The notes beneath the pieces were generated by a model that worked only from the letters and a program-made list of their open reading frames with translations, searched no databases and had not been told where the DNA came from. From a virus, in UHGV virus genome UHGV-0031292: a stretch of 39,344 bases of DNA; one strand, 5' to 3'. The position numbers were made by a program, and so were the translations under genes. Of the stretch, positions 3,063-33,852 are shown piece after piece (position 1 is the stretch's first letter; the number at the start of each line of letters is the position of its first letter).

Positions 3063-3944
3063 TTACATAGATGTTTCGTTTAATTCTTCCCGACGAGCGC
3101 TGTAAACGTCGGTGGCTTTTGCCAGCAGTTCGTCATCATCTGAAAGTTTTTGTGCAATGTATTTGTAAGCCTTATCCAGTTCGGAGACAGTGCTGTAATT
3201 CATCGCTGCGCTGGTAAAGGCCATCAGCATTTCTTCTGGATCACGGCTATCAGCTTTACGCGTTTGCTCATCAGGCTTTTTCACCGGTTTAGCGTTGATC
3301 AGACTGTTCATTCCCGCAGCAGTAGTCGTTTGCGGAGTAATGTCTCGCTCAACGCGCGGTGCCGTTTCCTGTAATTCGTCAGGGGTGTAAACACCGAGAA
3401 GTACATCAGGAGCGTGCAGGCGAGCCCATCGTTTCGTGCAAAGATAGGCAAGCTGCTGGCGCGGATCCTGTTCCCACAATGGAGAGTTACGCACTCCGGC
3501 TTGCGCCATACTGATGGTAAGCTCACGGGGTTCTGCTTCTCCTTTAAGAACCGCTGACACAGTTACCGTCAGATTCGGTGATTTATCTGTTTTGCCGTTA
3601 ACATTCGACCAGTCACCGCTCCAGCGATAATTCAGACGTGTCGCTAGCAGGCTGGAAGAGGATACGACCGCGTTTACCAACTGTGCTTCGTAGCCTAACG
3701 TTCCGTTTACCACATGCGTTTTTTGCGCCACGGCGAAAGGGTTCATTCCCCACTGTGCCGCCTGCATGGTCACCGCCAGACAATCGGCAGGTTTGCCTTC
3801 AAGATGTTTCGGTACAGTAGCTTTGCTTTGTGACATCAACTCCGCGAAACGCACCAGTTGATTCATGCCCTCCGGGCTGAAGATTGCCGCAGCAGTGCCT
3901 ACAGTTGCGCCTGGTTGTGATGTGATTGCGATATCATTGCTCAT
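3063..3944 (-). CDS. RecT-family single-strand annealing recombinase
   Basis: 293-aa ORF; conserved RecT-like core (QAAQWGMNPFAVAQKTHVVNGTLGYEAQLVNAV); start overlaps the upstream exonuclease stop. Confidence 0.75.
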   Translation of the reverse strand: MSNDIAITSQPGATVGTAAAIFSPEGMNQLVRFAELMSQSKATVPKHLEGKPADCLAVTMQAAQWGMNPFAVAQKTHVVNGTLGYEAQLVNAVVSSSSLLATRLNYRWSGDWSNVNGKTDKSPNLTVTVSAVLKGEAEPRELTISMAQAGVRNSPLWEQDPRQQLAYLCTKRWARLHAPDVLLGVYTPDELQETAPRVERDITPQTTTAAGMNSLINAKPVKKPDEQTRKADSRDPEEMLMAFTSAAMNYSTVSELDKAYKYIAQKLSDDDELLAKATDVYSARREELNETSM

Positions 3945-10491: not shown

Positions 10492-11042
10492 TCACTATTA
10501 CCAAAGGGCGACTGCTGACAATCAAGCAGTGGCGCGAAATATACGGACCTGGTAGCAACGTTGTACTGCCAGCAGAAGAAGCGGAAGAACTGGCACGGAT
10601 TGCACTGGCATCGCTGGAAGCAGAGTCTGTAAGCCAAACTTACAACTTGCCAGAATTGATCGAAGGCATGGAAGTTTCCATTGATGTAAGCACTTGTGAT
10701 GCTGATTTAGGTAATCGCTATTTCGGCACCGTCACCGAGGCGTTAGAACTTGATACAGCCAAGAATGGTTACATCCTCCTGGTTCAGGACGCAGAGCCAA
10801 ACTTCGATGTAAATGGCAACTCTCCGAGTTGGATAAGCTGTAGTGATCAAATGCCTGAAAAGGGCCAGAACGTGCTTATTTCGGTGAATTTCGATAGCTC
10901 TCTGGTTGAACCGCTAATATGCTCCGCACGCTATACCGGAAGCACCTTTCGGCGCGGAGATGCAACGATTAAGCCGGGTAATGGTATTGAGCAAGCAACT
11001 CACTGGATGCCGCTACCAGAACCGCCGCAGGAGGTGAAGTGA
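10488..11042 (+). CDS. Hypothetical phage protein with C-terminal DUF551-like domain
   Basis: 184-aa ORF; C-terminal WISCSDQMPE...ATHWMPLPEPP. Confidence 0.5.
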   Translation: MITITKGRLLTIKQWREIYGPGSNVVLPAEEAEELARIALASLEAESVSQTYNLPELIEGMEVSIDVSTCDADLGNRYFGTVTEALELDTAKNGYILLVQDAEPNFDVNGNSPSWISCSDQMPEKGQNVLISVNFDSSLVEPLICSARYTGSTFRRGDATIKPGNGIEQATHWMPLPEPPQEVK

Positions 11043-11404
11043 TGGACTATTCACAGTTAAGTGATTTTGAAATTAACGTGGCGGTATTCGAAGCCATTCA
11101 TAGCGGATCACCGGATTACAAAGAAGGTGAGAATGGCGATATGGTGTTTGTCTCATTTGAGGGAGACATTGTAAACGGAGACGCAGTTGAAGTAGAAGTT
11201 GAGCGCGGATCCTTTAACCCATGCGCAAACCCAGCAGACGCATGGCCGATTATTGCTGATAACGGAGTTAACATTCTCTGGGACTGGAACGAAAGCGGTT
11301 TGCACGGTGCTTCTGCCAACCCTATTTGGGAGCATGAGCATGAAAATGTTCTCCGAGCCGCCATGATTGTATTTCTCATGATGCAGGAAAATCAGAATGG
11401 CTAA
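11042..11404 (+). CDS. Hypothetical protein
   Basis: ATG after GGAGGTGAAGTG; acidic 120-aa product. Confidence 0.45.
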   Translation: MDYSQLSDFEINVAVFEAIHSGSPDYKEGENGDMVFVSFEGDIVNGDAVEVEVERGSFNPCANPADAWPIIADNGVNILWDWNESGLHGASANPIWEHEHENVLRAAMIVFLMMQENQNG

Positions 11405-11735
11405 ATCAGCAGCAGAGCGCAAAGCTGCTCAGAGAGCCAGACAAGCTGCATCTGGTGTGCGTAAGCTGGAAATTGTGCTTGATGCTCAGGAAATTGAAAT
11501 GCTTGAGCGTAACTGTGCCGCGCGTCGCCCCGGGCGTGCGCCTTACGAATTTGGTGAGTATATAGCGTTACTGATCCGCCAGGATGATGCACGCGTGCGC
11601 GGGCGTATAAAATCGATCAGCAGAAAATGTTGCGGTAAGTGCGGCGAGAGAGTTCCAGTTAATTCATGCCCGTGTAATGGTGACTCGCAATGCTGGGTGA
11701 CTAAAGGCTGGCATGAAACGAAATTAATAGTGTGA
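11397..11735 (+). CDS. Small basic protein with C-terminal Cys-rich zinc-ribbon-like motif; candidate late-gene regulator (speculative)
   Basis: 112-aa ORF, last early-right gene before terminator and packaging genes; motif CCGKCGERVPVNSCPCNG. Confidence 0.4.
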   Translation: MAKSAAERKAAQRARQAASGVRKLEIVLDAQEIEMLERNCAARRPGRAPYEFGEYIALLIRQDDARVRGRIKSISRKCCGKCGERVPVNSCPCNGDSQCWVTKGWHETKLIV

Positions 11736-11743
11736 CATGTCAC
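11732..11743. promoter_or_regulatory. 12-bp perfect palindrome GTGACATGTCAC overlapping the stop codon of the 11397 gene (copy 1 of 2)
   Basis: Identical 12-mer at 31923-31934. Confidence 0.4.
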
Positions 11744-11784
11744 GAGTAGATTATGCATGATGAATTTGATGGGTTTTGAATACT

Positions 11785-11810
11785 GCCGCCAACTATGGCG
11801 GCTTTATTTT
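11785..11810 (+). terminator. Intrinsic terminator between early-right and packaging genes (GCCGCC-AACTAT-GGCGGC plus TTTATTTT)
   Basis: Perfect 6-bp GC stem and T-rich tail; lies inside the N-terminal extension of the track ORF 11776-12450. Confidence 0.55.
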
Positions 11811-11853: not shown

Positions 11854-12450
11854 ATGATGCCTGCTGAACCTAAAACCTATAAACGCAAATCAACGCAATT
11901 TAAGCCACTAACAGCAATGCAGGAGGCTTATTGCCAGTCATACATCAAAACGCCTGAAAACCAGACTCAGGCAGCGATTAACGCAGGATTCTCCCCAAAT
12001 ACAGCGGCAGTTAAAGCCAGTGTCATGATGCGCGATGAACGCATTCAAAAACGGATTGCCGAGTTGATGGAGGAGCGCAACAAACGAATGCGCGTCAGTG
12101 CTGATTACGTTCTCATGCGCCTGGTGGAGATCGACCAGATGGACGTGATCGACATCCTCAACGACGATGGGAGCCTTAAACCAATCCGTGAGTGGCCGAA
12201 AATCTGGCGCACTACGCTTAGTGGCTTTGATCTGTCATCGACCATCATGAACATGAACGAGGATTCGATAGAGACAATCCTCAAAAAAATTAAATGGCCT
12301 GACAAGGTGAAGAACCTTGAGCTGATTGGTAAGCATGTTGATGTCAACGCGTTCAAAGAACGTCTGGATGTTAATGTGAATGTGACAATTGCTGATCGCA
12401 TAGCAGCAGCCAGGAAGCGACTCAAAGAACGTCAGGATGGTAATCAGTGA
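11854..12450 (+). CDS. Terminase small subunit
   Basis: Directly upstream of and overlapping the large terminase; start moved to MMPAEPK because the longer ORF includes a terminator hairpin. Confidence 0.6.
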   Translation: MMPAEPKTYKRKSTQFKPLTAMQEAYCQSYIKTPENQTQAAINAGFSPNTAAVKASVMMRDERIQKRIAELMEERNKRMRVSADYVLMRLVEIDQMDVIDILNDDGSLKPIREWPKIWRTTLSGFDLSSTIMNMNEDSIETILKKIKWPDKVKNLELIGKHVDVNAFKERLDVNVNVTIADRIAAARKRLKERQDGNQ

Positions 12451-13922
12451 CAGATACAGCGTTATCTCCTGAAGAGCAGTTGATCGAGGATATTGCAGGG
12501 TTCACTCACGATCCGCTTGGCTATGCCCTCTATGCGTTCCCGTGGGGGGAAGAGGGGACTGAACTGGCACATGCCACCGGCCCACGTCAGTGGCAGGCTG
12601 ATGCGTTCCGAGAGATACGTGATCACCTGCAGAATCCAGAGACGCGCTATCAGCCGCTTATGCTGGCACGCGCTTCTGGTCACGGTATTGGTAAATCCGC
12701 ATTCATCTCAATGCTGATCAACTGGGGCATGTCCACTTGCGAGGATTGTAAGGTCGTGGTGACCGCCAACACCGACAACCAGCTACGAACGAAGACCTGG
12801 CCGGAAATTATCAAGTGGTCGAACCTTGCTATCACGAAAGACTGGTTTACCTGTACCGCTACCGCGATGTACAGCAATGATCCTGGACACGACAAGCGGT
12901 GGCGAGCTGACGCAATACCCTGGTCTGAGCACAACACTGAGGCATTCGCCGGACTACACAACGAGCGCAAACGCATCATCGTGGTATTCGATGAAGCGTC
13001 GAACATTGCGGATCTGGTGTGGGAAGTTGCCGAGGGTGCGCTAACGGACGAAGACACTGAGATTATCTGGGTGGCGTTCGGAAACCCGACGCGTAATACC
13101 GGACGTTTCCGCGAATGTTTCCGCAAATATAAACACCGCTGGAAAACTGCGCAGATTGACAGCCGGACGGTGGAAGGCACCAACAAACAGCAGTTGCAGA
13201 AATGGGTTGATGACTACGGGGAAGACAGCGACTTCGTTAAAATCCGTGTGCGCGGCATATTCCCTGATGCATCTGAATTGCAGTTTATCCCTACCGGTCT
13301 TACTGACGAGGCAATGAAACGGGTGGTAACTGCTGCGCAGGTGGCACATGCTCCGGTGATAATCGGCGTTGACCCTGCATACTCCGGTGTTGATGACGCG
13401 GTGATATACCTGCGGCAGGGGCTGCACAGTAAGGTGCTGTGGACCGGCAACAAGACCACTGACGATCTGATTATGGCAAAGCGTATCGCTGACTTTGAAG
13501 ACCAGTATCAGGCTGACGCGGTGTTCATCGACTTCGGTTACGGTACCGGGCTGAAGTCAATCGGTGACGGTTGGGGGCGCACATGGCAACTTGTTCCGTT
13601 CGGTGGCGCGTCTACTGACCCGCAGATGCTCAACAAGCGTGGGGAGATGTTCAACTCATGCAAGACATGGCTGAGGCTGGGCGGCATGCTGGATGACCAG
13701 GAAACAGCGGACGACCTGTCGGCGGCAGAGTACAAAGTTCGAGTGGACGGTAAAATCGTTATCGAACCGAAGGAAGATATCAAGGAGCGGCTTGGGCGTT
13801 CGCCGGGTAAAGGCGATGCGCTACTGCTGACGTTTGCTTTCCCGGTGTCAAAGCGCCTGCGACTTCCCGGGCAGCAGAACCAGCAAGGCAAGGCGCTTAC
13901 CGAGTACGATCCATATGCTTAG
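12447..13922 (+). CDS. Terminase large subunit (ATPase/nuclease)
   Basis: 491-aa ORF with P-loop-like SGHGIGKS and DEAS (Walker B-like) motifs; GTG start overlapping upstream stop. Confidence 0.8.
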   Translation: MTDTALSPEEQLIEDIAGFTHDPLGYALYAFPWGEEGTELAHATGPRQWQADAFREIRDHLQNPETRYQPLMLARASGHGIGKSAFISMLINWGMSTCEDCKVVVTANTDNQLRTKTWPEIIKWSNLAITKDWFTCTATAMYSNDPGHDKRWRADAIPWSEHNTEAFAGLHNERKRIIVVFDEASNIADLVWEVAEGALTDEDTEIIWVAFGNPTRNTGRFRECFRKYKHRWKTAQIDSRTVEGTNKQQLQKWVDDYGEDSDFVKIRVRGIFPDASELQFIPTGLTDEAMKRVVTAAQVAHAPVIIGVDPAYSGVDDAVIYLRQGLHSKVLWTGNKTTDDLIMAKRIADFEDQYQADAVFIDFGYGTGLKSIGDGWGRTWQLVPFGGASTDPQMLNKRGEMFNSCKTWLRLGGMLDDQETADDLSAAEYKVRVDGKIVIEPKEDIKERLGRSPGKGDALLLTFAFPVSKRLRLPGQQNQQGKALTEYDPYA

Positions 13923-14737
13923 TCTTTATTTTTATCCTCGAAACCTGATAATCCAGATAGAACACCAAAGTTATTAAAAACGTTTGGCTTACCAGATTTT
14001 AATCCGGATAAGTTGTGTTGCTCCAAAAAGTTGCTAATTGTTTGGCCGTTGCCAAGTGCAAGGCTTTTTATTTGAGATTTTTCAGGGTATTTGAGTTTGT
14101 ATTCGTCGAAATCATTTTGGAGGGTCTTATATGCCTCATTCATTCTTCCAAGAGTTTCCGATATCTCTTTTAATGAATGATTTAGAGCTGCTAACTGAGC
14201 ACTGGCGGATCTCAATTCGTCATCTTTAGCTTTCAACTCGGCAGTCAATTCCCCCATACTATTCTTTGATCGAATAATCTCTTCTTTCATCTCTTGGATG
14301 TCTTTTTCCGCGCCAGTCTTAACTTTGTCGTATGTAACATCTTTTTTAGCCAATAACCTCTGCAGTCTTGTTTCACGCTGGATTTTTCTTGCCTTCAGGT
14401 GATTTTCGATTGAGTCATTATTATCAAGAGGCTTTGCTTGCCATACGTTAATGATATTGTTTACCCATGGTAATAGGCAGCAGATAGCAATTACAGATAA
14501 GCATGGATAAAACATAACAGTTTTCCATGTGCTGTTATCTGAGATATATGAAATTTTATCTATTATGTTTGATTTGCTAAAAAATAGATAAAGAATTGAT
14601 TTCCAGTTGAAGGCGCACCAGGACATAACAAAAGCACCAAGCACAGGGTTTTTGGCTCTATTCACGGCAGTATTGGCAGTAGATAAAAACAGCTCTTTAA
14701 ACGATTCAAACATGCTAATTACCTTGAAGTTTTTCAT
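13919..14737 (-). CDS. AT-rich moron: membrane protein (2 predicted TM helices) with long C-terminal coiled coil; candidate superinfection-exclusion or abortive-infection factor
   Basis: Opposite strand to flanking late genes; low GC; hydrophobic N-terminus; heptad-rich C-terminus; start taken as MKNFKV (internal ATG). Confidence 0.55.
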   Translation of the reverse strand: MKNFKVISMFESFKELFLSTANTAVNRAKNPVLGAFVMSWCAFNWKSILYLFFSKSNIIDKISYISDNSTWKTVMFYPCLSVIAICCLLPWVNNIINVWQAKPLDNNDSIENHLKARKIQRETRLQRLLAKKDVTYDKVKTGAEKDIQEMKEEIIRSKNSMGELTAELKAKDDELRSASAQLAALNHSLKEISETLGRMNEAYKTLQNDFDEYKLKYPEKSQIKSLALGNGQTISNFLEQHNLSGLKSGKPNVFNNFGVLSGLSGFEDKNKD

Positions 14738-14741
14738 GATT

Positions 14742-14756
14742 ATACCTTTAAGGTAA
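14742..14756. promoter_or_regulatory. Palindrome copy (variant ATACCTTTAAGGTAA) a few bp upstream of the moron start, overlapping a TATAAT on the minus strand
   Basis: Matches xxACC-N5-GGTAA; minus strand reads ...TTACCTTAAAGGTATAATCATG. Confidence 0.45.
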
Positions 14757-14772
14757 TTTGCGGTCATCAAGC

Positions 14773-14959: not shown

Positions 14960-15036
14960 CTGGCGTGGCATGCAGGATTCGAACCTGCGACCAACCGCTT
15001 AGAAGGCGGTTGCTCTGTCCGACTGAGCTAATGCCA
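14960..15036 (-). tRNA. tRNA-Arg, anticodon UCU (decodes AGA)
   Basis: Minus-strand 77-nt sequence GTGGCATTAGCTCAGTCGGACAGAGCAACCGCCTTCTAAGCGGTTGGTCGCAGGTTCGAATCCTGCATGCCACGCCA folds as a cloverleaf (7-bp acceptor stem, CTTCTAA anticodon loop, GGTTCGAATCC T-arm, encoded CCA). Confidence 0.85.
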
Positions 15037-15359
15037 CAACGCTGAGAGCACTTAGCCTGTTAAGGCGCCACACTTTGTCGCGGCTCCATAAATGCTCTCA
15101 TCGTTGTACCCTCGTCTCTTCCGAGGCGTCACACCGAATCGCCGGGATGGTGAATCCCCGTGCGCGGAATAAAACCGCTCGACTTGCACATTCCGGCTAC
15201 CTGGTTCGTTTGCTCGAGCAAGGGAGGGTGCCCCTTAAACGTATCCAGACCGCTATCGGCGCATGTGCCATACGCCGTACTGCTCAAAATAAAAGCTCAC
15301 TCCTCCTGTTCAATTTAACGACAAGCCAGTCAGGTTAATAACCGGAATGAACTCTTTGC

Positions 15360-15374: not shown

Positions 15375-15464
15375 TAATTCGTGCGTTAAATGTCAACTAT
15401 CTACGATAAATAAATCATATGTGGTTAAATTGGTAATAATTTAATTGCGTACGGAGTCATTGAT

Positions 15465-15671
15465 ATGTGCATGGGTAGCTCACCATCAGTGCCTGCAACA
15501 CCAGAAGTTCAGGCAGCACCACAGGAGCAGGATGCCGCCGTTGTTGATGCCCGCGACGAAGAAACACGTCGCCGTCGCGCTGCTGCTGGTCGTAGTTCTA
15601 CGCTGCTTACCGGTTCTCAGGGCGACACATCAACCGCTAATACCAGCGGTAAAACGCTGCTTGGTCAGTAA
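15465..15671 (+). CDS. Small hypothetical protein preceding the portal gene
   Basis: 68-aa ORF with GGAG ribosome-binding site; low-complexity Ala/Arg-rich product. Confidence 0.4.
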   Translation: MCMGSSPSVPATPEVQAAPQEQDAAVVDARDEETRRRRAAAGRSSTLLTGSQGDTSTANTSGKTLLGQ

Positions 15672-15685
15672 CCGGAGTCATTGAA

Positions 15686-17365
15686 ATGGCGGAAACAACT
15701 AAAGAGCGATTGAACAAACAGTTCGCACAACTTGAAAGCGAGCGTCAATCGTTCGAGCCGCACTGGCGCGAGTTGAGTGATTACATCAACCCGCGTGGTT
15801 CCCGCTTTCTGACTTCTGAGGTCAACCGTAACGATCGACGCAATACACGCATTATTGATTCGACCGGGACTATGGCGGCGCGCACTCTCGCCAGCGGCAT
15901 GATGTCAGGCATCACAAGCCCCGCGCGTCCGTGGTTTCGCCTGGCTACGCCAGATCCTGAAATGATGGATTATGGCCCTGTTAAGTTGTGGCTTGAGGCG
16001 GTGCAGAACCGCATGAACGATATGTTCAATAAGTCGAATCTCTATCAGTCGCTGCCGCAGTTATACGGAAGCCTCGGCACATACAGCACTGGTGCAATGG
16101 CGGTGCTGGAGGATGACGAGGACATTATTCGCACAATGCCATTCCCGATAGGCAGTTACTACCTGGCTAACTCACCTCGTGGCAGTGTGGACACCTGTTT
16201 TCGCAAGTTCTCTATGACTGTTCGTCAGCTTGTTCAGGAGTTCGGGCTAAATAACGTCAGCGAATCCGTAAAAAGCATGTGGGAAAGCGGCACCTACGAG
16301 AAGTGGATCGAAGTGATGCATTCGGTTTACCCGAACATTGACCGCGATACATCGAAGCTGGATAGCAAGAACAAGCCATTCAAATCGGTTTATTACGAGG
16401 TTGGTGGCGATAACGACAAGTTGTTGCGTGAGTCCGGATTCGATGAGTTTCCAATTATGGCTCCGCGCTGGGAAGTTAATGGCGAAGATGTTTATGGATC
16501 ATCATGCCCGGGTATGCTGGCGCTTGGACCTGTTAAGGCATTGCAGCTTCTCCAGAAGCGCAAGTCGCAGTTGATTGATAAAGCCACCAATCCGCCGATG
16601 GTTGCTCCGACTTCCCTCAAGAATCAGCGTGCCTCCCTTCTTCCTGGCGACATCACGTATATCGATCAGATTACTGGTCAGGATGGCTTCAGGCCTGCTT
16701 ATCTGGTTAACCCCAGTACAGCAGATTTGGTGGCAGACATTCAGGACACTCGTCAAATCATTAACAGCGCCTACTTCGTCGATCTGTTCATGATGTTGCA
16801 GAACATCAATACCCGCTCAATGCCTGTTGAAGCGGTGATCGAAATGAAAGAAGAAAAGCTTCTGATGTTGGGGCCGGTTCTGGAGCGTCTGAACGACGAA
16901 TGTCTTAATCCTCTCATTGACCGCGCTTTCTCGATGATGGTGCGTAAAAACATGCTGCCGCCACCGCCTGACGCGATGGAAGGCATGCCCCTGAAGGTCG
17001 AATACATTTCCGTCATGGCTCAGGCGCAGAAGTCTATCGGCCTGTCCAGTCTGGCGTCCACGGTTAACTTCATTGGTCAACTTGCGCAAGCGAAACCAGA
17101 AGCTCTCGACAAACTCAACGTTGATCAGGCGATCGATGCATTCGCTGATATGTCCGGAGTGTCTCCAACCGTCATTGTTCCGCAGGAACAGGTTGAGCAG
17201 GCTCGCCAACAACGGGCACAGCAGCAACAGCAGCAACAAATGATGGCGATGGGGATGGCGGCGGCACAGGGTGCCAAGACGCTAAGCGAAGCTAAAACTT
17301 CGGATCCGAGTGTTTTGTCAGCTATGGCGAATGCAGTTAGTGGTCAGGGTGGGCAATCACAATGA
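15686..17365 (+). CDS. Portal (head-to-tail connector) protein, podovirus type
   Basis: 559-aa ORF after terminase and before scaffold/capsid; CCGGAG ribosome-binding site. Confidence 0.8.
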   Translation: MAETTKERLNKQFAQLESERQSFEPHWRELSDYINPRGSRFLTSEVNRNDRRNTRIIDSTGTMAARTLASGMMSGITSPARPWFRLATPDPEMMDYGPVKLWLEAVQNRMNDMFNKSNLYQSLPQLYGSLGTYSTGAMAVLEDDEDIIRTMPFPIGSYYLANSPRGSVDTCFRKFSMTVRQLVQEFGLNNVSESVKSMWESGTYEKWIEVMHSVYPNIDRDTSKLDSKNKPFKSVYYEVGGDNDKLLRESGFDEFPIMAPRWEVNGEDVYGSSCPGMLALGPVKALQLLQKRKSQLIDKATNPPMVAPTSLKNQRASLLPGDITYIDQITGQDGFRPAYLVNPSTADLVADIQDTRQIINSAYFVDLFMMLQNINTRSMPVEAVIEMKEEKLLMLGPVLERLNDECLNPLIDRAFSMMVRKNMLPPPPDAMEGMPLKVEYISVMAQAQKSIGLSSLASTVNFIGQLAQAKPEALDKLNVDQAIDAFADMSGVSPTVIVPQEQVEQARQQRAQQQQQQQMMAMGMAAAQGAKTLSEAKTSDPSVLSAMANAVSGQGGQSQ

Positions 17366-17658
17366 CAGATTACGAAGACGATCAACTGAAAGAAGAAAAC
17401 GCCCGTAAGCAACGTGACATGGCACAGCGTGAAATTGATGACATTCGCTTTGTCATGAGCAGTGAACAGGGGCGTCGCGTTGTCTGGTCGGTGCTGGAGA
17501 AAGGCCGTGTGTTTTCCGCTATCTCACCGATGGACGCTATGGCAATGGCATTTAATGAGGGGCAACGCAATCTGGCGCTGGAACTGTTTCAGCGCGTTAT
17601 GGCGCATTGCCCTGAACAGTATTTGAAGATGGCCAAAGAGGCCAGTGAACAGGAGTGA
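17362..17658 (+). CDS. Hypothetical head-associated protein
   Basis: 98-aa ORF overlapping the portal stop (ATGA). Confidence 0.5.
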   Translation: MTDYEDDQLKEENARKQRDMAQREIDDIRFVMSSEQGRRVVWSVLEKGRVFSAISPMDAMAMAFNEGQRNLALELFQRVMAHCPEQYLKMAKEASEQE

Positions 17659-17660
17659 TC

Positions 17661-18347
17661 ATGAATTTATTTGAGCGTTTGCTGTATAGCCGTCTTTGCA
17701 ATGAGCAACCAGTCGATGGTGGAGCAGCTCCGGCTGCGTCAGCGCCTGCAGGTGATAACCCTGCTCCAGTTGGTGATCCATCACAACAGGAAGGTGATAA
17801 GCCACAACCTGTTGCTGATGGCGATAAACCTGCTGATGACAAAAAGCCTGAAAACGATAAGCAGGATGAAAAAAAGGACGGCGATAAACCAGAGGGTGCG
17901 CCTGAGAAGTACGAGTTTCAGGCTGCCGAAGGCGTAGAGCTGGATACAGAAGCGTTGAAGGAATTCGAGCCGGTGGCGCGAGAACTTAACCTGACCAACG
18001 AGCAAGCGCAAAAGCTGGTTGATGCTTATCCGAAGATTCTGGCAGGTGTTCAGCAGCGCCAGGCAGAAGCCTGGCAGAAAACAACCGAGCAGTGGGCTGC
18101 GGATGTAAAAGCTGACAAAGAAATCGGTGGCGACAAGTTGATTTCTAACCTTAGCGCCGCACAGCGTGCGCTTGACCAGTTCGGGACACCTGAACTCAAA
18201 GAATATCTGAACACCACCGGGCTGGGTAATCACCCTGATCTGGTCAAAACGTTCGTGAAAATCGGAAAGGCGATGTCTGAAGATGGCATGGTCACCGGTG
18301 GTAATGAAGGCCAGCGTAGTGCGGCCGAAGTGCTCTATGGCAAATAA
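17661..18347 (+). CDS. Scaffolding protein (putative)
   Basis: Acidic, Ala/Pro/Lys-rich, low-complexity protein just upstream of the major capsid gene; start MNLFERL after AGGAG. Confidence 0.55.
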   Translation: MNLFERLLYSRLCNEQPVDGGAAPAASAPAGDNPAPVGDPSQQEGDKPQPVADGDKPADDKKPENDKQDEKKDGDKPEGAPEKYEFQAAEGVELDTEALKEFEPVARELNLTNEQAQKLVDAYPKILAGVQQRQAEAWQKTTEQWAADVKADKEIGGDKLISNLSAAQRALDQFGTPELKEYLNTTGLGNHPDLVKTFVKIGKAMSEDGMVTGGNEGQRSAAEVLYGK

Positions 18348-18361
18348 GAGAGGAAATGACA

Positions 18362-19348
18362 ATGGCTGTTAAAGGCTTAACTGCGCTAACGCTGGCTGAC
18401 TGGGGTAAGCGCGTCGATCCAAACGGGAAAGTCGATAAGATTATCGAGCTTCTCGGTCAAACTAACCCGATCCTTCAGGATATGCCTTTTGTCGAAGGGA
18501 ACCTTCCTACCGGACACCGAACCACCATTCGTTCTGGTTTACCTTCAGCTACCTGGCGTTTGCTGAACTATGGCGTACAGCCAAGCAAATCAACCACAGT
18601 GCAGGTAACCGATTCCGTTGGCATGCTGGAAACCTATGCTGAAGTCGATAAATCACTGGCTGATCTGAACGGCAATACCGCTGAATTCCGCCTGTCTGAA
18701 GACCGCGCATTTATTGAAGCGATGAATCAGCAGATGGCGCAGACGCTGTTTTATGGTGATTCCAGCGTTAACCCTCAGCAGTTTATGGGACTGTCCTCCC
18801 GCTATTCCAGCCTGTCTGCGGGTAATGCTCAGAACATCATTGATGCTGGTGGCACGGGTACAGATAACACCTCAATCTGGTTAGTGGTGTGGGGCGAAAA
18901 CACCGTGCATGGCATCTTCCCGAAAGGGAAGAAGGCTGGCATCCAGATGGAAGATAAAGGCCAGGTGACACTGGAAGATGCGAATGGCGGCAAGTACGAA
19001 GGCTACCGTACCCATTACAAATGGGACAACGGACTTGCTCTGCGTGACTGGCGTTATGTTGTTCGCATTGCAAATATCGATGTCAGCAATCTTTCAGAAC
19101 CTTCCTCTGCCGCAAATATTGCGAAGTTGATGGTTAAAGCACTGCATCGCATTCCAAACCGTGGCATGGGCCGCCCGGTGTTCTACATGAACCGCACTGT
19201 AGGCCAGGCTCTTGATCTGCAGTCTCTGGAGAAAACATCTCTGGCGATTAGCGTAAAAGAGACTGAAGGCGAGTGGTGGACGTCATTCCGTGGTGTACCA
19301 ATCCGTGAAACTGATGCGCTTCTGGAAACAGAAGCCCGCGTGGTGTAA
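18362..19348 (+). CDS. Major capsid protein
   Basis: About 330-aa ORF after the scaffold with a strong ribosome-binding site (AGAGAGG); position typical of the major head protein. Confidence 0.75.
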   Translation: MAVKGLTALTLADWGKRVDPNGKVDKIIELLGQTNPILQDMPFVEGNLPTGHRTTIRSGLPSATWRLLNYGVQPSKSTTVQVTDSVGMLETYAEVDKSLADLNGNTAEFRLSEDRAFIEAMNQQMAQTLFYGDSSVNPQQFMGLSSRYSSLSAGNAQNIIDAGGTGTDNTSIWLVVWGENTVHGIFPKGKKAGIQMEDKGQVTLEDANGGKYEGYRTHYKWDNGLALRDWRYVVRIANIDVSNLSEPSSAANIAKLMVKALHRIPNRGMGRPVFYMNRTVGQALDLQSLEKTSLAISVKETEGEWWTSFRGVPIRETDALLETEARVV

Positions 19349-19399
19349 CGCCTGTTATTAACCTGTGGGTCGTAACAGACCCACTAATGGAGAAAGAAG

Positions 19400-19837
19400 A
19401 TGATCACCGACAAACTGTTGATGTTCTCCGAAGCACAGGCGGTTACGAATACCGCGGCTTCTACTGACGTAATCGATCTCGGTCCAATTGACGGAAAACG
19501 TCGTGATATCGGCGTTGGTTACCCGCTTGAGTTTTGGGCGCTGGTTAACACAGCCGCCGCGGCAAGCGGTGATGCAACTGTAAACATCCAGTTGCAGACG
19601 AGTGAGAATAACAGCTCATGGACCACTATTTATGATAGTGGCGCACTGGCAAAGACCGCCATGACAGCAGGTAAACGAGTTGTTTCTGCAAAGGTGCCTG
19701 CCGGTGTTCAGCGATATCTGCGTGTTAACTACTCCGTCGCAACTGGCCCACTAACGGCTGGCGAATTCACTGCTGGTATCAGTCTTGATGTTGATGCCAA
19801 TACGCCGTATCCGATCCGCTCAAAAGTAACTGGTTAA
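19400..19837 (+). CDS. Capsid-associated (decoration/stapling-like) protein, putative
   Basis: 145-aa ORF immediately after the capsid gene; GGAGAAAG ribosome-binding site. Confidence 0.45.
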   Translation: MITDKLLMFSEAQAVTNTAASTDVIDLGPIDGKRRDIGVGYPLEFWALVNTAAAASGDATVNIQLQTSENNSSWTTIYDSGALAKTAMTAGKRVVSAKVPAGVQRYLRVNYSVATGPLTAGEFTAGISLDVDANTPYPIRSKVTG

Positions 19838-19847
19838 GGTGATATCG

Positions 19848-20183
19848 ATGTCAGGTGAGAAACCAAGATACCGCGTTCTGCGCCTCTCTCATATCCATAA
19901 CACTCTGTGGCCGGAGGGGGCAGAAATCGAATACGAAGGTGAGCCTGGTAGCGCACTGGAACCTGTTAACGATGCAGCCAGACAGGCAAAAGCAAAGGTA
20001 GCAGGAAAGGTGTCAATGGCAGCAACCAGCACCAAAATCATCAACGATGTGTCAGATGATGGTGAGCTGGATAAGCTCCGTGAAGAGTACGAATTGCTCT
20101 TTAACGAGAAGCCACACCATAACGCCAAAGCCGAAACGCTCCGCGAGAAGATCGCAGATAAGCGTAAAGAACTGGGCGTGTAA
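19848..20183 (+). CDS. Hypothetical virion-module protein
   Basis: Start MSGEKPRY after AAGGTGA; followed by terminator. Confidence 0.45.
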   Translation: MSGEKPRYRVLRLSHIHNTLWPEGAEIEYEGEPGSALEPVNDAARQAKAKVAGKVSMAATSTKIINDVSDDGELDKLREEYELLFNEKPHHNAKAETLREKIADKRKELGV

Positions 20184-20200
20184 GCCTCGCGGATCAGACA

Positions 20201-20222
20201 AGGGGCTTCGGCCCCTTTATTG
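20201..20222 (+). terminator. Intrinsic terminator (AGGGGC-TTCG-GCCCCT plus TTATT) inside the structural gene cluster
   Basis: Perfect 6-bp stem with tetraloop, T-rich tail. Confidence 0.5.
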
Positions 20223-20233
20223 CAGGAGTGTAT

Positions 20234-20557
20234 ATGGAACTCGTAAACCTCAAAACCGGCACTGACAGCTACCAGGATGAGAGCGGAGAAACCAGAACTC
20301 GCGATGAATACCCGTGGGGGCTGTGCATCACTCTTAATAACGACACATTGAATAAGCTGAAGGCGCAACCTAAGGGCGTCGGAACGGAAGTGATGATAAC
20401 TGCAAAGGCTGTTATTCGAGGCCTGTCTGCCAGAGAAACTAACGATGGCGTTAATCGCAGCGCCGATCTGCAGATCACTGATATGGCGATCGCTCCTGTT
20501 TCCGGGGATGTAGAAAAATCAGCGGCTGAAACTCTGTACGGTAACGGAGGTGAGTGA
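20234..20557 (+). CDS. Hypothetical virion-module protein
   Basis: Start MELVNLK after AGGAG; 108 aa. Confidence 0.45.
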   Translation: MELVNLKTGTDSYQDESGETRTRDEYPWGLCITLNNDTLNKLKAQPKGVGTEVMITAKAVIRGLSARETNDGVNRSADLQITDMAIAPVSGDVEKSAAETLYGNGGE

Positions 20558-21162
20558 TGGCCTCTGTAGTAGAGATCTGTAATCGTGCGCTGTCCAATAT
20601 TGGCAACAGCCGCAGCATTAACAGCCTGACGGAAGCCAGCAAGGAAGCGGGGGAATGTTCGCTGCACTTTGAGGCCTGCCGTGATGCTGTGCTTTCTGAT
20701 TTTGACTGGAACTTTGCTACCAAACGCGTGGCGCTTGCAGATACGAGCAATCCACCGCCTGACTGGGAATATGCGTACCAGTACCCGTCCGATTGTCTGC
20801 GCATTACTGAAATTATGCTTCCTGGTGTACGCAATCCAACAGCAGCAATGCGCGTTCAGTACGAAGTTGGTGCAGACACCGACGGAACAGGAAAGTTGAT
20901 CTACACAGACCAGCCGCAGGCATGGCTCAAGTATGTCTCTCGCGTTTCAGATGTGAACATGTTTGATGCCATTTTTATGGAGGCGTTGGCCTGGCGTCTT
21001 GCGGCAGCCATTAACATGGCGCTGACTGGGAATGCGGATCTCGGTACATTTGCTCTCAATATGTACAATCGCGTGATTCTTAGTGCTGGCTCGCATAGCC
21101 AGAATGAATCACAGGAACCACAGCCACCGGTTGACGAGTTTACCATTGCGAGGTTGTCCTGA
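20557..21162 (+). CDS. Tail tubular protein A-like (putative adaptor)
   Basis: About 200-aa ORF directly upstream of an 823-aa tail protein, matching T7-like gp11/gp12 order and size. Confidence 0.45.
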   Translation: MASVVEICNRALSNIGNSRSINSLTEASKEAGECSLHFEACRDAVLSDFDWNFATKRVALADTSNPPPDWEYAYQYPSDCLRITEIMLPGVRNPTAAMRVQYEVGADTDGTGKLIYTDQPQAWLKYVSRVSDVNMFDAIFMEALAWRLAAAINMALTGNADLGTFALNMYNRVILSAGSHSQNESQEPQPPVDEFTIARLS

Positions 21163-23633
21163 TGGCTATCAGTTGGATCCAGCCCAGCTTTGCCGGTGGT
21201 GAGATTGGACCGTCGTTGTACGGTCGTATCGACATGGCGAAGTACCAGGTGGCATTGCGCAAGTGCGATAACTTTATCGTGCGGCAGTATGGCGGCGTTG
21301 AGAATCGACCTGGTACGCGTTTTGTCGGTGCCGCCAAATACCCAAATCGGAAATGCCGCCTGATCCCGTTCCAGTTCTCGACTGTTCAGACCTATGCTCT
21401 GGAGTTCGGACACCAGTACATGCGCGTTATCAAAGATGGTGCGTTGGTGCTGAACAGCAGCAATGTTATTTATGAAATTGCCACGCCATATACTGAAGCC
21501 GATCTATTCCGAATTAAATTCACGCAAAGCGCAGACGTTCTTACGCTGGTTCATCCGGCATACCCGCCGAAAGAGTTGCGCCGCTATGCGCATGACAACT
21601 GGCAACTGGTTGATGTGGTAACGAAGAACGGGCCATTTGAAGATATCAATATTGACGAGTCAGTGACGGTTTATGCCAGCGCCAGCACCGGGACAATTAC
21701 GTTAACGGCAAGCGCCTCTATTTTTGGCGCGGAGCAGGTAGGCAAATTGTTCTATCTGGAACAGCCAGCAGTGGATTCAGTACCGGTATGGGAAACCAGT
21801 AAGAGTACGTCGATTGGCGATATTCGCCGTGCAGACAGTAACTACTATCGCGCCGTTACAGCAGGCAAAACAGGCACTTTGCGCCCTTCGCATACAGAAG
21901 GCACATCATGGGATGGCTGGGGCGGCTCCGGTGATGATGATACTGGCATTGAGTGGGAGTATCTGCACAGTGGTTTTGGCATTGCCCGTATAACTGCTGT
22001 AAATGGCACTACTGCAACTGCTGAGGTGATTTCCTATATCCCTTCGCAGGTCGTTGGCGAGGATAATGCCAGCTATAAATGGGCTAAATATGCCTGGAAC
22101 AGTGTTAATGGTTATCCTGGCACTGTTGTTTATTATCAACAGCGTCTTTACTTCGCCGCATCGACTGCGTTCCCTCAGACTATCTGGGCCAGCCGTACTG
22201 GGGATTATAAGGATTTTGGCAAAAGCAATCCTACGCAGGATGACGACAGAATTATCTACACCTATGCCGGGCGTCAGGTTAATGAGATCCGTCACCTGAT
22301 TGATGTTGGTTCGCTGGTGGCACTGACTTCCGGAGGTGAGTACGTCATCACCGGCGACCAGAACAAAGTGTTAACCCCATCATCATTTGCATTCAGCTCT
22401 CAGGGATCAAATGGCTCGAGCAATGTCCCACCAATTGCCGTGGCGAATATTGCTCTGTTCGTCCAGGAGAAAGGCAGTGTTGTCCGTGATCTGGCCTACT
22501 CATTCGATGTTGACGGCTATCAGGGGAACGACCTGACCATCCTTGCCAATCATCTTTTTCAGAAGCACAGCATTGTTGACTGGTGCTTCTCTATTGTCCC
22601 TTACTCCAGCGCCTTCTGCATTCGTGATGACGGTAAATTACTGGTGATGACCTATTTGCGTGATCAGCAGGTTTTTGCATGGGCACCACAATCCAGTACC
22701 GGAAAATATGAAAGCACATGCAGTATCAGCGAAAAAAATGAAGATGCGGTGTATTTCGTCGTTAACCGAACCGTTAACGGGCAAACAGTGAGATACATCG
22801 AGCGACTGTCCAGCCGTTTATTTACCAGCGATGAAGATGCTTTCTTTGTTGATTCTGGCCTTAGCTATGATGGAAGAAATACGTCTGACAGAACGATGAC
22901 CATCACTGGTGGTTCTGGAGAATGGGATTACCGCGCGGAATATACAATCAGTATTTCTGGTGGTGCGTACTTCACCAGTAGTGATGTCGGTGCGCAACTA
23001 CAGTTCCCTTATATCGGAACTGATCCTGGTACTGGCGATGAAGTGTCAAAAGAATTACGTTGCGACATTATTTCTATAACCAGCAACACCGCTGTAGTGG
23101 TTCGTGCTAACAGGAACGTCCCGCCATCCCTCATGAATGTGGCCACCACGAACTGGCAGATGGCGCGCCGGACATTTGGAGGCCTGTCTCATCTTGAAGG
23201 CCAGACCGTAAACATTCTCTCTGATGCGAACGTGGAACCACAGAAAGTGGTTTCCGGAGGTGCCGTCACGCTGGAATCACCGGGGGCTGTTGTGCACATC
23301 GGCCTGCCAATAACTGCTGAATTCGAAACACTGGATATCAACATTAACGGACAGGAAACGCTGCTGGACAAAAAACAGGTGATCCCGTCCGTTACTCTGG
23401 TTGTGAATGCCAGTCGCGGCATCTGGGCGACTACGCCCGGCGGTAAATGGTACGAATATCCACAGCGTGAATTCGAGTTCTACGATGATCCTGTTGATGA
23501 CGCTACCGGAAAAGTAGAAGTGAAACTGGACAGTAACTGGGGCAAAAACGGACGTGTAAGAATCCGTCAGCTTGACCCGTTGCCGCTGTCTGTTCTTGCC
23601 GTTATTCCTCGCCTTACTGTTGGGGGGTTCTGA
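21162..23633 (+). CDS. Tail tubular protein B-like / major tail (nozzle) protein
   Basis: 823-aa ORF, translationally coupled upstream and downstream. Confidence 0.55.
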   Translation: MAISWIQPSFAGGEIGPSLYGRIDMAKYQVALRKCDNFIVRQYGGVENRPGTRFVGAAKYPNRKCRLIPFQFSTVQTYALEFGHQYMRVIKDGALVLNSSNVIYEIATPYTEADLFRIKFTQSADVLTLVHPAYPPKELRRYAHDNWQLVDVVTKNGPFEDINIDESVTVYASASTGTITLTASASIFGAEQVGKLFYLEQPAVDSVPVWETSKSTSIGDIRRADSNYYRAVTAGKTGTLRPSHTEGTSWDGWGGSGDDDTGIEWEYLHSGFGIARITAVNGTTATAEVISYIPSQVVGEDNASYKWAKYAWNSVNGYPGTVVYYQQRLYFAASTAFPQTIWASRTGDYKDFGKSNPTQDDDRIIYTYAGRQVNEIRHLIDVGSLVALTSGGEYVITGDQNKVLTPSSFAFSSQGSNGSSNVPPIAVANIALFVQEKGSVVRDLAYSFDVDGYQGNDLTILANHLFQKHSIVDWCFSIVPYSSAFCIRDDGKLLVMTYLRDQQVFAWAPQSSTGKYESTCSISEKNEDAVYFVVNRTVNGQTVRYIERLSSRLFTSDEDAFFVDSGLSYDGRNTSDRTMTITGGSGEWDYRAEYTISISGGAYFTSSDVGAQLQFPYIGTDPGTGDEVSKELRCDIISITSNTAVVVRANRNVPPSLMNVATTNWQMARRTFGGLSHLEGQTVNILSDANVEPQKVVSGGAVTLESPGAVVHIGLPITAEFETLDININGQETLLDKKQVIPSVTLVVNASRGIWATTPGGKWYEYPQREFEFYDDPVDDATGKVEVKLDSNWGKNGRVRIRQLDPLPLSVLAVIPRLTVGGF

Positions 23634-24097
23634 TGATCGATGTTCGAATTATTCCCGCTACCGAAGAGCATCTTCAGATGATTTTGCCGGATGTTCGTCA
23701 GGCTGATATTGACGAACTGTATGCGGTATCGCTGATGACTACCGAAGATGCGCTGCGTGTTGGTCTTCGCACTGCGACTATGGCCTGGTCAGGATTTGCG
23801 AACGGAGAACTGGTAACCATGTTTGGCGTATCTCCGGCGTCAATGATCGGTGGCAATGGTACGCCCTGGCTGGTAGGAACCAGCCGTATTGAAAAATATC
23901 AGAAGACATTTCTTCGCCACTGCCGCCCTGTATTGCAGAAGATGCTGGCAGTTTATCCGCGCCTGGAAAACTACGTCGACGAGCGAAACCATGTTGCCAA
24001 AGCATGGCTGCACTGGCTTGGATTCAGGCTTGAAGAAGCCGCGCCTTATGGTGCTCTTGGTCTTAATTTCCACAGATTTCACATGGAGAGAAAATAA
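23633..24097 (+). CDS. Internal virion protein (putative)
   Basis: 154-aa ORF coupled between tail and internal-protein genes. Confidence 0.4.
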   Translation: MIDVRIIPATEEHLQMILPDVRQADIDELYAVSLMTTEDALRVGLRTATMAWSGFANGELVTMFGVSPASMIGGNGTPWLVGTSRIEKYQKTFLRHCRPVLQKMLAVYPRLENYVDERNHVAKAWLHWLGFRLEEAAPYGALGLNFHRFHMERK

Positions 24098-24642
24098 TGT
24101 GCGATCCGGTTATTGCTGGTGGCGCAATGCTCGCCATGAGTGGCATTCAGGCATACACCCAGTACCAACAGGGAAAGTATGCCTCGAAGGTTGCAGAAGC
24201 GAACGCAGATATAGCCACTGCTCAGGCAAATGATGCAATAAACAGAGGTAACGCTGAAGCTGAGCAACGGCGCAGAGAGACCCGACAGCGGCTTGGTACA
24301 CAGGCGGCGACAATGGGGGCTACCGGCGCTGATTTATCTACAGGTAACGCGCTGGATATATTTGGCGACACTGCCCAGTTTGGCGCTCTTGATTCGCTAA
24401 CGACGGTGAATAACGCGCAACGCGAGGCTTACGGTTATCAGGTTCAGGCTGCTAACTATAAAGCAGAAGCCAGTTCAGCCCGTAAACAGGGGAATGTGGG
24501 AGCAGCAACAACATTGCTCACTGCGCCTCTGAAGGCATACGGTGCGTACCAGATGTTTGGTGGGACGTGGAGTCCGTTTACTCAAAGCACTCCTGCGCCA
24601 ATCGGGGCAGCAGCAGGAACCAGATTACCCGGAGGATTATAA
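24097..24642 (+). CDS. Internal virion protein (Ala/Gln-rich, putative ejection protein)
   Basis: 181-aa ORF; low-complexity composition typical of podovirus internal core proteins. Confidence 0.45.
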   Translation: MCDPVIAGGAMLAMSGIQAYTQYQQGKYASKVAEANADIATAQANDAINRGNAEAEQRRRETRQRLGTQAATMGATGADLSTGNALDIFGDTAQFGALDSLTTVNNAQREAYGYQVQAANYKAEASSARKQGNVGAATTLLTAPLKAYGAYQMFGGTWSPFTQSTPAPIGAAAGTRLPGGL

Positions 24643-28954: not shown

Positions 28955-28959
28955 ATTAA

Positions 28960-31434: not shown

Positions 31435-31443
31435 GGAAGTGTT

Positions 31444-31617
31444 GTGTTTTTAATTATTTTGAGTGTAATAATTTCTGGTGGATTGTTATTTATTGACCAC
31501 TACAAATATTTTCTTAACCCTCAGACTCAAGCTATTTGCTGGTTCATCTTTGTTGTGCAGGGAGTAGTTCTTGTTGCAAGCCTTATTGAGGGGAGGCCTC
31601 TTATTTTTACTGGGTAA
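31444..31617 (+). CDS. Small hydrophobic protein (about 57 aa, 2 predicted TM helices), GTG start
   Basis: Read by eye (VFLIILSVIISGGLLFIDHYKYFLNPQTQAICWFIFVVQGVVLVASLIEGRPLIFTG); AAGGAAG ribosome-binding site; not in ORF track. Confidence 0.3.
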   Translation: MFLIILSVIISGGLLFIDHYKYFLNPQTQAICWFIFVVQGVVLVASLIEGRPLIFTG

Positions 31618-31629
31618 ATAGGTGACTAC

Positions 31630-31926
31630 ATGCAAGCTATAGGATTCATTGTTTATATCGTCGTTGGTCTTTTTCAGTTGGCAGCAATTATGGCTGGGCT
31701 TGAATCATGGTGGGGATTGCACTGGATAATTGCAGCCCCCATCGCTTTCATCGTGAGCTATATTCCATTTGTTGGAGCGATTGTTGGTATGGTTGGCGCT
31801 GTGGATGTATGGCGGTGGGAGTGGTGGCAGGCTGGCCTTCTATTCTTTGGTGGGATAATCTTTGCTATTGTCTGCGGTGGAATGTCATCATTTTTCGAAT
31901 GGCTATCATTCAGAAAAGAGACGTGA
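31630..31926 (+). CDS. Small integral membrane protein (3 predicted TM helices), accessory
   Basis: 98-aa highly hydrophobic ORF; stop codon inside the GTGACATGTCAC palindrome and followed by a terminator. Confidence 0.5.
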   Translation: MQAIGFIVYIVVGLFQLAAIMAGLESWWGLHWIIAAPIAFIVSYIPFVGAIVGMVGAVDVWRWEWWQAGLLFFGGIIFAIVCGGMSSFFEWLSFRKET

Positions 31927-31934
31927 CATGTCAC
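31923..31934. promoter_or_regulatory. 12-bp perfect palindrome GTGACATGTCAC (copy 2 of 2), overlapping the stop codon of the 31630 gene
   Basis: Identical to 11732-11743. Confidence 0.4.
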
Positions 31935-31959
31935 AGGCCGCTTTCGCGGCCTTGTTTTT
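31935..31959 (+). terminator. Intrinsic terminator (GGCCGC-TTTC-GCGGCC plus TTGTTTTT)
   Basis: Perfect 6-bp GC stem followed by T-run. Confidence 0.6.
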
Positions 31960-33706: not shown

Positions 33707-33827
33707 CACCGCAACGCCAATTACTGGTGGTGAACTGGACAAGGTTGGCGTACCGGCCTAAGTGGTACCGGCGTCCTTTCGGACCCCTGCCCAGCCCACC
33801 ATAATTCGGATATAGCTGTGCTTAACG

Positions 33828-33852
33828 CATAAAAAAACCACGTCTGGCGTGG
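33828..33852 (-). terminator. Intrinsic terminator on minus strand (CCACG-CCAGA-CGTGG plus T7) between the two antirepressor-like genes
   Basis: Plus strand reads AAAAAAACCACGTCTGGCGTGG. Confidence 0.55.

Follow-up and report, generated by a model that had tools for sequence, protein, structure and literature searches.

Ribbon-helix-helix (RHH) proteins usually act on DNA as repressors or as architectural factors, and the classical repressors of this fold, namely Arc, Mnt, CopG, omega and the antitoxins, are small dimers that occupy short dyad-symmetric operators. In a second kind of system, represented by the gp71 stoperators of mycobacteriophage L5 and the KorA and KorB operators of RK2, copies of a site are dispersed between genes and the bound protein limits transcription across units. 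Stoperators, to which the prophage repressor binds, are asymmetric and orientation-dependent, with about 30 in each genome. MatP organizes the Ter macrodomain of the chromosome in Escherichia coli and its relatives, where its matS sites are concentrated. The E. coli consensus of matS is GTGACATTGTCAC, or GTGAC[AG]N[CT]GTCAC (PMC8669397, PMC3603311); Bobay et al. report that prophages of Escherichia and Salmonella contain no canonical matS and infer counter-selection (PMC3603311). Here we describe a 12-bp palindrome, GTGACATGTCAC, which occurs twice in the virus genome UHGV-0031292, together with the protein family whose gene it accompanies. The whole stretch of 39,344 nucleotides, hereafter the window, is by its sequence an epsilon15-like (Uetakevirus) temperate phage or prophage of E. 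coli.

Two copies of the palindrome in the window

The original prediction, made from the window alone, held that a 12-bp palindrome is present in two exact copies, each overlapping a stop codon and each preceding a terminator, and all three points are borne out. The copies lie at 11732-11743 (site A) and 31923-31934 (site C), and a scan of the whole window finds no third exact one. Bases 2-4 form a TGA stop codon in both, which at site A (TGA 11733-11735) ends the open reading frame (ORF) 11397-11735, encoding a Cys-rich protein of 112 amino acids (aa), and at site C (TGA 31924-31926) ends the ORF 31630-31926. A T-tract hairpin is found 41 nt 3' of the first copy, and another abuts the second. 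The full conserved element is 14 bp long, with T or C preceding the 12-mer and A or G following it, so defined that the last base of site C is the first base of the terminator stem (31935).

Within the window GTGACATGTCAC is the sole duplicated sequence among 12 perfect 12-bp palindromes, and some duplicated 12-bp palindrome arises in 41 of 1500 second-order Markov simulations (about 2.7%, p ~0.03). Judged from the window alone, the duplication is suggestive, mildly improbable and not decisive. A copy with a variant centre, GTGACCCGTCAC (34879-34890), fits the same pyrimidine and purine (Y/R) flanks and is not present in phiV10 or TL-2011b; its status is uncertain and it could have arisen by chance.

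The palindrome accompanies a phage gene family

The 112-aa protein belongs to a family that includes epsilon15 gp49 and N15 gp46, hereafter the gp49 family. Briefly, a profile of the protein was scanned against one genome per species, yielding 48 bacterial loci in Citrobacter, Klebsiella, Pantoea, Erwinia, Rahnella, Serratia, Brenneria, Yersinia and others, most at 40-81% protein identity, of which 46 were analyzed. In 31 of the 46, GTGAC-NN-GTCAC overlaps the stop codon of the family gene, always in one register, and seven further loci carry it within about 15 nt of a displaced stop, for a total of about 38. The centre is CG in Yersinia (GTGACGCGTCAC), where the site is still palindromic. The last codon of the gene may be GTG, ATG, TTG, CTG, GCG or CCG, yet it is always of the N-Y-G form required by the motif; the DNA motif therefore constrains the protein C-terminus and not the reverse. 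Distant homologues, at 31-39% identity, are also accompanied by the motif.

Downstream of the site, three contexts are encountered: a terminator and terS, the LexA-box promoter of a umuD-like gene, or an excisionase followed by an integrase. In lambdoid prophages the site stands just before xis-int, and four different kinds of excisionase are represented there. In Klebsiella, Enterobacter and Citrobacter relatives a TTGACT -35 hexamer lies within 6 nt of palindrome A, together with a perfect LexA box, and this promoter drives the umuD-like gene, which is inserted before terS (3133-3210 in one locus).

Sites in N15, KpLi5, two Vibrio siphoviruses and a P2-like Yersinia phage are listed in Table 1; in the Vibrio siphoviruses and the P2-like phage they are located elsewhere in the genome than the family-gene stop. 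The N15-like and Vibrio carriers exist as plasmid-prophages and have partition genes, and the Vibrio phages K308 and PhiPS02 carry a ParA-like gene. Besides its three 12-bp sites, each of these two Vibrio phages has one canonical 13-bp matS (GTGACACCGTCAC), at 19491 in K308 and at 14562 in PhiPS02. A further dyad, CGACC-NN-GGTCG, occurs in 4-5 copies per genome in N15 and KpLi5 and is more frequent there than the GTGAC dyad. Hosts of the family are Enterobacterales, Vibrio and Aeromonas, with a few records assigned elsewhere.

The best-supported conclusion is that the palindrome is probably the cognate double-stranded DNA site of the adjacent protein, and that gene and site form a portable cassette whose parts move together, the site usually supplying the TGA stop of the gene. 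The two are linked in phages of unrelated types, from epsilon15-like podoviruses to N15-like phage-plasmids and lambdoid prophages. The original prediction was that the palindrome could be served, in a qut-like manner, by the protein encoded upstream of it; the tie to that gene stands, both at the bacterial loci and at the stops of the N15-like phages, and the qut-like service finds no support as a general function, for reasons weighed in the Discussion.

Conservation in epsilon15-like phages

Nine epsilon15-like genomes were compared, and the palindrome is found at the same junctions in all nine, with flanking genes that differ. Three junctions are involved, namely A, the gp49 stop codon; B, after terL and beside a terminator; and C, where the tail operon ends and a terminator adjoins. 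The exact 12-mer occupies A, B and C in epsilon15, PAT1, Tyrion, BUCT554 and SPN1S, and two of the three in phiV10, TL-2011b and BUCT711. Site A is present in epsilon15, TL-2011b, PAT1, Tyrion, Omnitron, BUCT711 and SPN1S. In eight of the nine genomes site C stands directly 5' of the terminator that closes the tail operon, and the gene upstream of the site is a 98-aa ORF in the window, p21 in phiV10, Ant in TL-2011b and gp18 in epsilon15. At each of these sites, the order is stop codon, palindrome, terminator for one of the genes that end there. In Chlobot and several prophages the stop codon is shifted upstream, and the palindrome still lies 5-9 nt downstream of the stop.

Among close relatives in IMG/VR, site A is an exact 12-mer in 75 of 79, and most carry a second copy 2.2-2.5 kb downstream, which corresponds to site B (52 such copies); the sequences from a scan of viral contigs for close relatives are all 96-99% identical and represent little diversity. 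The spacer from site A to the terminator is 10-41 nt long and unalignable among relatives. In the window, whose regions around the sites are 97-99% identical to HEMP4, TL-2011b, PAS61 and phiV10, site B is absent because an ORF for a 283-aa coiled-coil protein replaces the terminator, palindrome B and an Sf6-gene-66-like module. This ORF (13919-14770, minus strand) overlaps the terL stop, and the same arrangement is seen in BUCT711.

Motif statistics and symmetry of the site

Among all 1024 possible 5-N2-5 inverted repeats, GTGAC-NN-GTCAC ranks first in the 11 genomes that carry the gene, with 30 copies versus 11 for the runner-up, and it is first or tied for first in eight of the 11 taken singly. 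Each gene-carrying genome contains 1-4 copies, versus a chance expectation of about 0.04 per 40 kb, and lambda and P2, both without the family gene, contain none. When the spacer in GTGAC-Nk-GTCAC is varied from k = 0 to 8, a 2-bp spacer is found in 40 of the 45 matches from 15 genomes and in 50 of the 52 from the 48 bacterial loci. Second in frequency among the 5-N2-5 dyads of these genomes is GATAA-NN-TTATC, which lies inside structural genes of the window at 18434, 21267 and 29215 and also has three copies in phiV10.

Across 114 distinct contexts, position -1 is C or T in 96% and position +13 is A or G in 96%, the centre dinucleotide varies freely, and the flank pairs are non-complementary (T..G 53, C..A 21, C..G 18, T..A 15). 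Since the Y/R flanks are symmetric but unpaired, the symmetry is that of duplex DNA, as suits a half-site GTCAC-R and a symmetric dimer, and not that of an RNA stem. The predicted RNA fold of the palindrome has an energy of -2.9 kcal/mol (z = -0.38), no better than shuffled sequences, and no alternative RNA structure is predicted between palindrome and terminator. An RNA structural or terminator element was rejected: the hairpin is weak, sequence and not pairing is conserved, and the true terminators are separate, adjacent hairpins. Of the two roles first suggested for the palindrome, an RNA-processing site finds no support, this hairpin being weak, and a protein-binding site accords with a conserved element of two-fold DNA symmetry. 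We regard the palindrome as almost certainly a functional conserved DNA element, and very probably as a site at which a protein binds double-stranded DNA.

Fifteen of 33 sites lie near a terminator, versus 3.4% of random positions. This enrichment is not independent evidence, because it reflects three inherited sites in one genus.

The 112-aa protein and its relation to MatP

The protein matches PHROG 536 (E = 1.4e-54), which bears the label 'transcriptional regulator', and its family, which at 50% identity falls into 181 clusters, is without a curated Pfam or NCBIfam entry. Weak, sub-threshold Pfam and NCBIfam matches to RHH_5, RepB-RCR_reg, RHH_1 and YbfE are seen, and a few members give such RHH matches in Pfam. 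An AlphaFold2 model built from a 65-sequence alignment has a predicted local distance difference test (pLDDT) score of 90.3 and consists of a basic helix (residues 5-19), an extended segment (20-29), helices 30-42 and 52-74, a Cys-rich region and a final helix, the C-terminal Cys-rich residues being C79xxC82, C91xC93, C99 and H106. The modeled fold, that of a monomer, resembles RHH DNA binders, MatP included. Foldseek against the PDB gives no match at E <= 0.001, sequence searches of the PDB give none, and a BFVD fold search returns just a 46-aa fragment homologue. The most conserved part of the family is the N-terminal basic helix (AERKxAQRxR), and the putative ribbon varies.

Because MatP is among the fold resemblances, the matS sequence was checked. 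The phage 12-mer is the matS consensus minus one central base, with identical half-sites. By the 13-bp definition it is not a matS, as its spacer in the window is 2 bp and the window contains no spacer-3 match, and so strict a 2-bp spacer speaks for the phage sites being a class of their own rather than weak versions of matS. On the protein side, the MatP basic helix K71-x3-R75-A-R77 precedes the RHH strand T89-R-K-K, and in the gp49 family K9-x3-R13-A-R15 precedes R22-K23. A hidden Markov model (HMM) of the family aligns to MatP residues 71-140 in the same register as this basic-helix alignment; its score against MatP is 2.6 bits, a value reached by 1583 of 20000 shuffles (8%), and the hhalign probability is 0.2%. 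In Pfam scans no MatP match (PF06303 / PF17414) is seen for the window protein or among the 25 most frequent families. Membership of the MatP family was rejected, the similarity being not significant and the three-part build of MatP (four-helix bundle, RHH, coiled coil) being absent. Given this lack of significance, 'MatP-like' is here a lead and not a family assignment.

Layout of the window

Coordinates of the sites and of the surrounding features are collected in Table 1. Sites resembling ATTACC-N5-GGTAAT, annotated as repressor-binding in the epsilon15 record, are found at 5232, 5294, 6006, 8375, 11821, 11839, 15359, 32883, 34323 and 37240. They occur in the immunity region, and one opens each late unit: 11821 and 11839 before terS, 15359 before the head genes, 34323 before the tailspike and 37240 before the lysis genes. 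This arrangement suggests that the prophage repressor may act directly on every late unit. The palindromes of the window are found at the ends of the units preceding such operator-like sites, beside terminators, and the terminator at site C separates the tail operon from the convergent minus-strand accessory and antirepressor genes.

The antirepressor operon, which meets the tail operon head-on at palindrome C, is SOS-controlled and gated by a c4-type RNA. A perfect LexA box, CTGT-N8-ACAG, lies at 34269 (34269-34288); just downstream of it are Rfam matches to isrK (33831-33907, minus strand) and C4 antisense RNA (33723-33806, minus strand), followed by an Ant/Bro-like ORF (32964-33689, minus strand). 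A tRNA-Arg gene (anticodon TCT; 14961-15037, minus strand) lies between the terminase and head operons.

Table 1. Sites and features in the window, with the family sites of other phages (strand given where assigned).
Feature	Position	Strand	Remark
Site A, 14-bp dyad T-GTGACATGTCAC-G	11731-11744	.	TGA inside is the stop of the gp49-family gene
Site C, 14-bp dyad C-GTGACATGTCAC-A	31922-31935	.	TGA inside ends ORF 31630-31926
Centre-variant copy C-GTGACCCGTCAC-G	34878-34891	.	within tailspike ORF 34443-36890
112-aa protein gene (epsilon15 gp49 / N15 gp46 family)	11397-11735	+	proposed palindrome binder; Cys-rich; follows NinX at the end of the early-right operon
98-aa ORF, stop inside site C	31630-31926	+	accessory gene, not conserved at the junction in other phages
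Intrinsic terminator, between site A and terS	11785-11810	+	hairpin 11785-11802, T-tract to 11810; annotated in the epsilon15 record; terS starts at 11857
Intrinsic terminator abutting site C	31935-31959	+	hairpin 31935-31952, T-tract to 31959; annotated in phiV10 and epsilon15
Integrase, early-left genes, repressor	upstream of 6000
NinX, end of early-right operon	11039-11404
terS / terL	11857-13922
Head-tail operon	15445-31926
Antirepressor operon	31958 to ~34290	-	LexA box, c4-type RNA; convergent with tail operon
Tailspike	34443-36890
Lysis genes	after 37240
Sites in N15 and KpLi5			three identical GTGACTGGTCAC copies: at the gene 46 stop; between the repA and icd/antirepressor operons; inside repA
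Sites in Vibrio siphoviruses K308 and PhiPS02			three each, two of them ~20 nt upstream of start codons, including the terS ATG
Site in P2-like Yersinia phage			one copy, away from the family-gene stop

Discussion

The explanation that we favor is that a dimer of the RHH/Cys-rich protein encoded at 11397-11735 would bind the 14-bp dyad Y-GTGAC-NN-GTCAC-R, present at the stop codon of its own gene and in extra copies at the ends of other transcription units. Site A marks where the early-right operon ends, just ahead of the terminator and terS, and site C the end of the head-tail operon, where the latter meets the convergent antirepressor operon under SOS and c4-RNA control. In other phages the cassette separates an operon from xis-int, or the repA operon from that of the antirepressor. 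Once bound, the protein may serve as a boundary element, roadblock- or repressor-like, which alongside the terminators would limit transcription between units. That the gp49-family protein is the binder seems probable from the distribution of gene and site. The boundary or roadblock role, preferred because repression or an architectural function on DNA is typical of RHH proteins, is put forward tentatively, as is the direction of its effect on transcription. The explanation as a whole, a gp49-family DNA site at transcription-unit boundaries, comes somewhat short of an even chance.

A number of observations weigh against this explanation. What ties protein to site is, at the level of the genomes compared, co-occurrence alone, and it is incomplete: about eight of the 46 bacterial loci with a homologue show no site at the stop codon, and no site is present anywhere in an Aeromonas phage that encodes a distant homologue. 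In SPN1S the N-terminus of the gp49 homologue (38348-38656) is replaced (MATTTTRRQNLLELELVLD...), so that the basic helix and the RK residues are missing, yet all three palindromes, A, B and C, are retained exactly. By the criteria used here, no terminator lies near the sites in N15, the Vibrio phages or the P2-like phage. A roadblock on the gene's own stop codon would truncate its own mRNA, which is awkward unless the gene is autoregulated. Finally, no sigma-70 promoter-like site is found between the terminator at 11785-11810 and terS, and with no terS promoter detected a block at site A would be counter-productive unless an activator-dependent promoter exists.

This last observation also counts toward antitermination, in which the gp49 protein at its site would engage RNA polymerase in the style of Q at qut, read through the terminator and so turn on the late genes. 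The place of the gp49-family gene as the last early gene, directly before the terminator and terS, points the same way, as do the order of stop codon, palindrome and terminator at the epsilon15-like sites, the Vibrio phage site just upstream of the terS ATG, and the want of an evident Q homologue, the 112-aa protein having no Q-family Pfam match and the related records no annotated Q gene. We nevertheless consider antitermination unlikely. The cassette is also found in N15 and KpLi5, which have a Q of their own, in a P2-like phage and upstream of xis-int; the palindrome of site B falls after the terL terminator on the late strand; the distance from palindrome to terminator runs from 0 to 41 nt with a spacer that is not conserved; a processive factor would need one site only; and antitermination is not a known activity of RHH proteins. 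The late genes of P2-type phages depend on Ogr. The qut-like late switch of the original prediction is not supported as a general account, given this spread over Q-bearing N15-like phages, P2-like phages and positions upstream of xis-int, and neither is its late promoter, since the promoter-like match around the site is not conserved among relatives. Control of read-through at the terminators, confined to epsilon15-like phages, is conceivable. At site A this match, GTGACA-18-CATGAT, takes the palindrome's GTGACA as its -35 hexamer; GTGACA with a -10-like hexamer is seen in the window, the epsilon15 group and Omnitron and not in other lineages, and a late promoter was accordingly rejected. So was a lambda-type Q/qut module, for which there is no Q Pfam match and no conserved promoter, the downstream terminator being the sole element present. 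It is very improbable that the palindrome serves instead as a linker in modular recombination, as an RNA hairpin or processing signal or as a packaging (pac/cos) site, or that it is a product of chance. Homology breakpoints do fall at its edges (the TL-2011b match starts at 31922, those of epsilon15, SPN1S and Omnitron end near 11745, and that of Chlobot ends at 11728), and it adjoins the terminase genes. Yet recombination convenience alone could not keep the element conserved between Vibrio and Escherichia, where the proteins are 32% identical, the RNA hairpin is weak and its flanks are unpaired, and chance is excluded by the ranking of the 5-N2-5 dyads and the spacer-2 counts. A pac or cos site was rejected because the palindrome is found with lambda-like (N15), P2-like and P22/Sf6-like terminases, including those of cos phages. 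The phiV10 record begins inside the palindrome because it was opened right after the last stop codon, and the Tyrion genome is circularly permuted (PMC5754475), though its record splits at the palindrome centre.

The resemblance to matS bears on two other readings. In one, the gp49 family would be a relative or analogue of MatP with sites orthogonal to matS, and its function would be architectural: organizing or positioning phage or plasmid-prophage DNA, or evicting MukBEF/SMC-type complexes. The near-identity of the two sites is in keeping with this, as are the basic helix found in both proteins just N-terminal to the RHH unit (K-x3-R-A-R, then an RK strand), the few and dispersed sites, the plasmid-prophage nature of the N15-like and Vibrio carriers, and host taxa that largely coincide with the MatP/MukBEF clade. 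Prophages moreover avoid the true 13-bp matS (PMC3603311). Set against these are the HMM and hhalign scores reported above, a Cys-rich domain in place of the first three bundle helices and the coiled coil, and a placement at boundaries and at the gene's own stop that goes unexplained except as a harmless location, and on balance such a system is unlikely. In one version, temperate phages and phage-plasmids of Enterobacterales and Vibrio would carry a portable cassette encoding an RHH/zinc protein related to MatP, and possibly its source, acting on sites with a 12-bp core in architecture and not in transcription. The spacer, shorter by one base, would make these sites orthogonal to host matS, and the protein might unload MukBEF or SMC-type defence complexes from phage DNA or position plasmid-prophages; this version we likewise judge rather unlikely. 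In the other reading the sites would be occupied by host MatP, or by some other protein of the host that the phage exploits, and their link with gp49 would be incidental. The host range of the palindrome matches that of MatP, the half-sites are identical to those of matS, and the SPN1S sites are intact despite the replaced gp49 N-terminus. In every lineage, however, the spacer is 2 bp where matS has 3, genuine matS is avoided by prophages (PMC3603311), and the site is tied to the gp49-family stop in epsilon15-like, N15-like and lambdoid contexts, which leaves a host factor the least likely of the readings considered.

With the favored gp49-family site, a family present in many temperate phages of enteric bacteria and Vibrio gains a precise candidate DNA site, and the motif is usable as a simple annotation marker of module boundaries in these prophages. 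A boundary element would explain how early, late and antirepressor transcription are kept separate in epsilon15-like phages without a recognizable Q or N. If instead the protein is a relative of MatP, it would constitute the first phage-borne chromosome-organizing system and a possible clue to the origin of MatP.

Comparison with known systems

In the literature searched, neither the 12-mer nor MatP-like phage proteins nor SPC32H operators were found; the palindrome is thus, within that literature, a previously absent phage DNA site, tied to an uncharacterized putative DNA-binding family and nearly identical to matS. The window resembles lambda Q/qut at PR' and tR' in that the regulator is the last early gene, the putative site lies just downstream of it and a terminator stands before the late genes. 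It differs in having no conserved promoter around the site and, per genome, several sites at the 3' ends of units; the protein is not of the Q family, and the cassette occurs also in Q-bearing phages and in a P2-like phage. Unlike stoperators, the phage sites are symmetric, number 1-4 per genome and have as their candidate binder a product of the early lytic operon.

With MatP/matS the phage system shares the GTGAC/GTCAC half-sites, dyad symmetry, few and dispersed copies per replicon and much of its host range. The spacer of matS is 3 bp, whereas that of the phage site is strictly 2 bp; the phage sites, unlike matS, lie on phage genomes and are tied to a gene stop and to unit boundaries; and the phage protein has 112 aa and a Cys-rich C-terminus, without the first three bundle helices and the C-terminal coiled coil of MatP. 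With the classical RHH repressors, judging from the fold matches of the model, it has in common a small RHH-like protein and a short dyad-symmetric site. It departs from them in the position of that site at a gene's 3' end and not at a promoter, in the extra Cys-rich domain, and in conserving a basic helix N-terminal to a ribbon of variable sequence. In kind, then, the palindrome is a dyad operator for an RHH-type protein, a variant of that known class.

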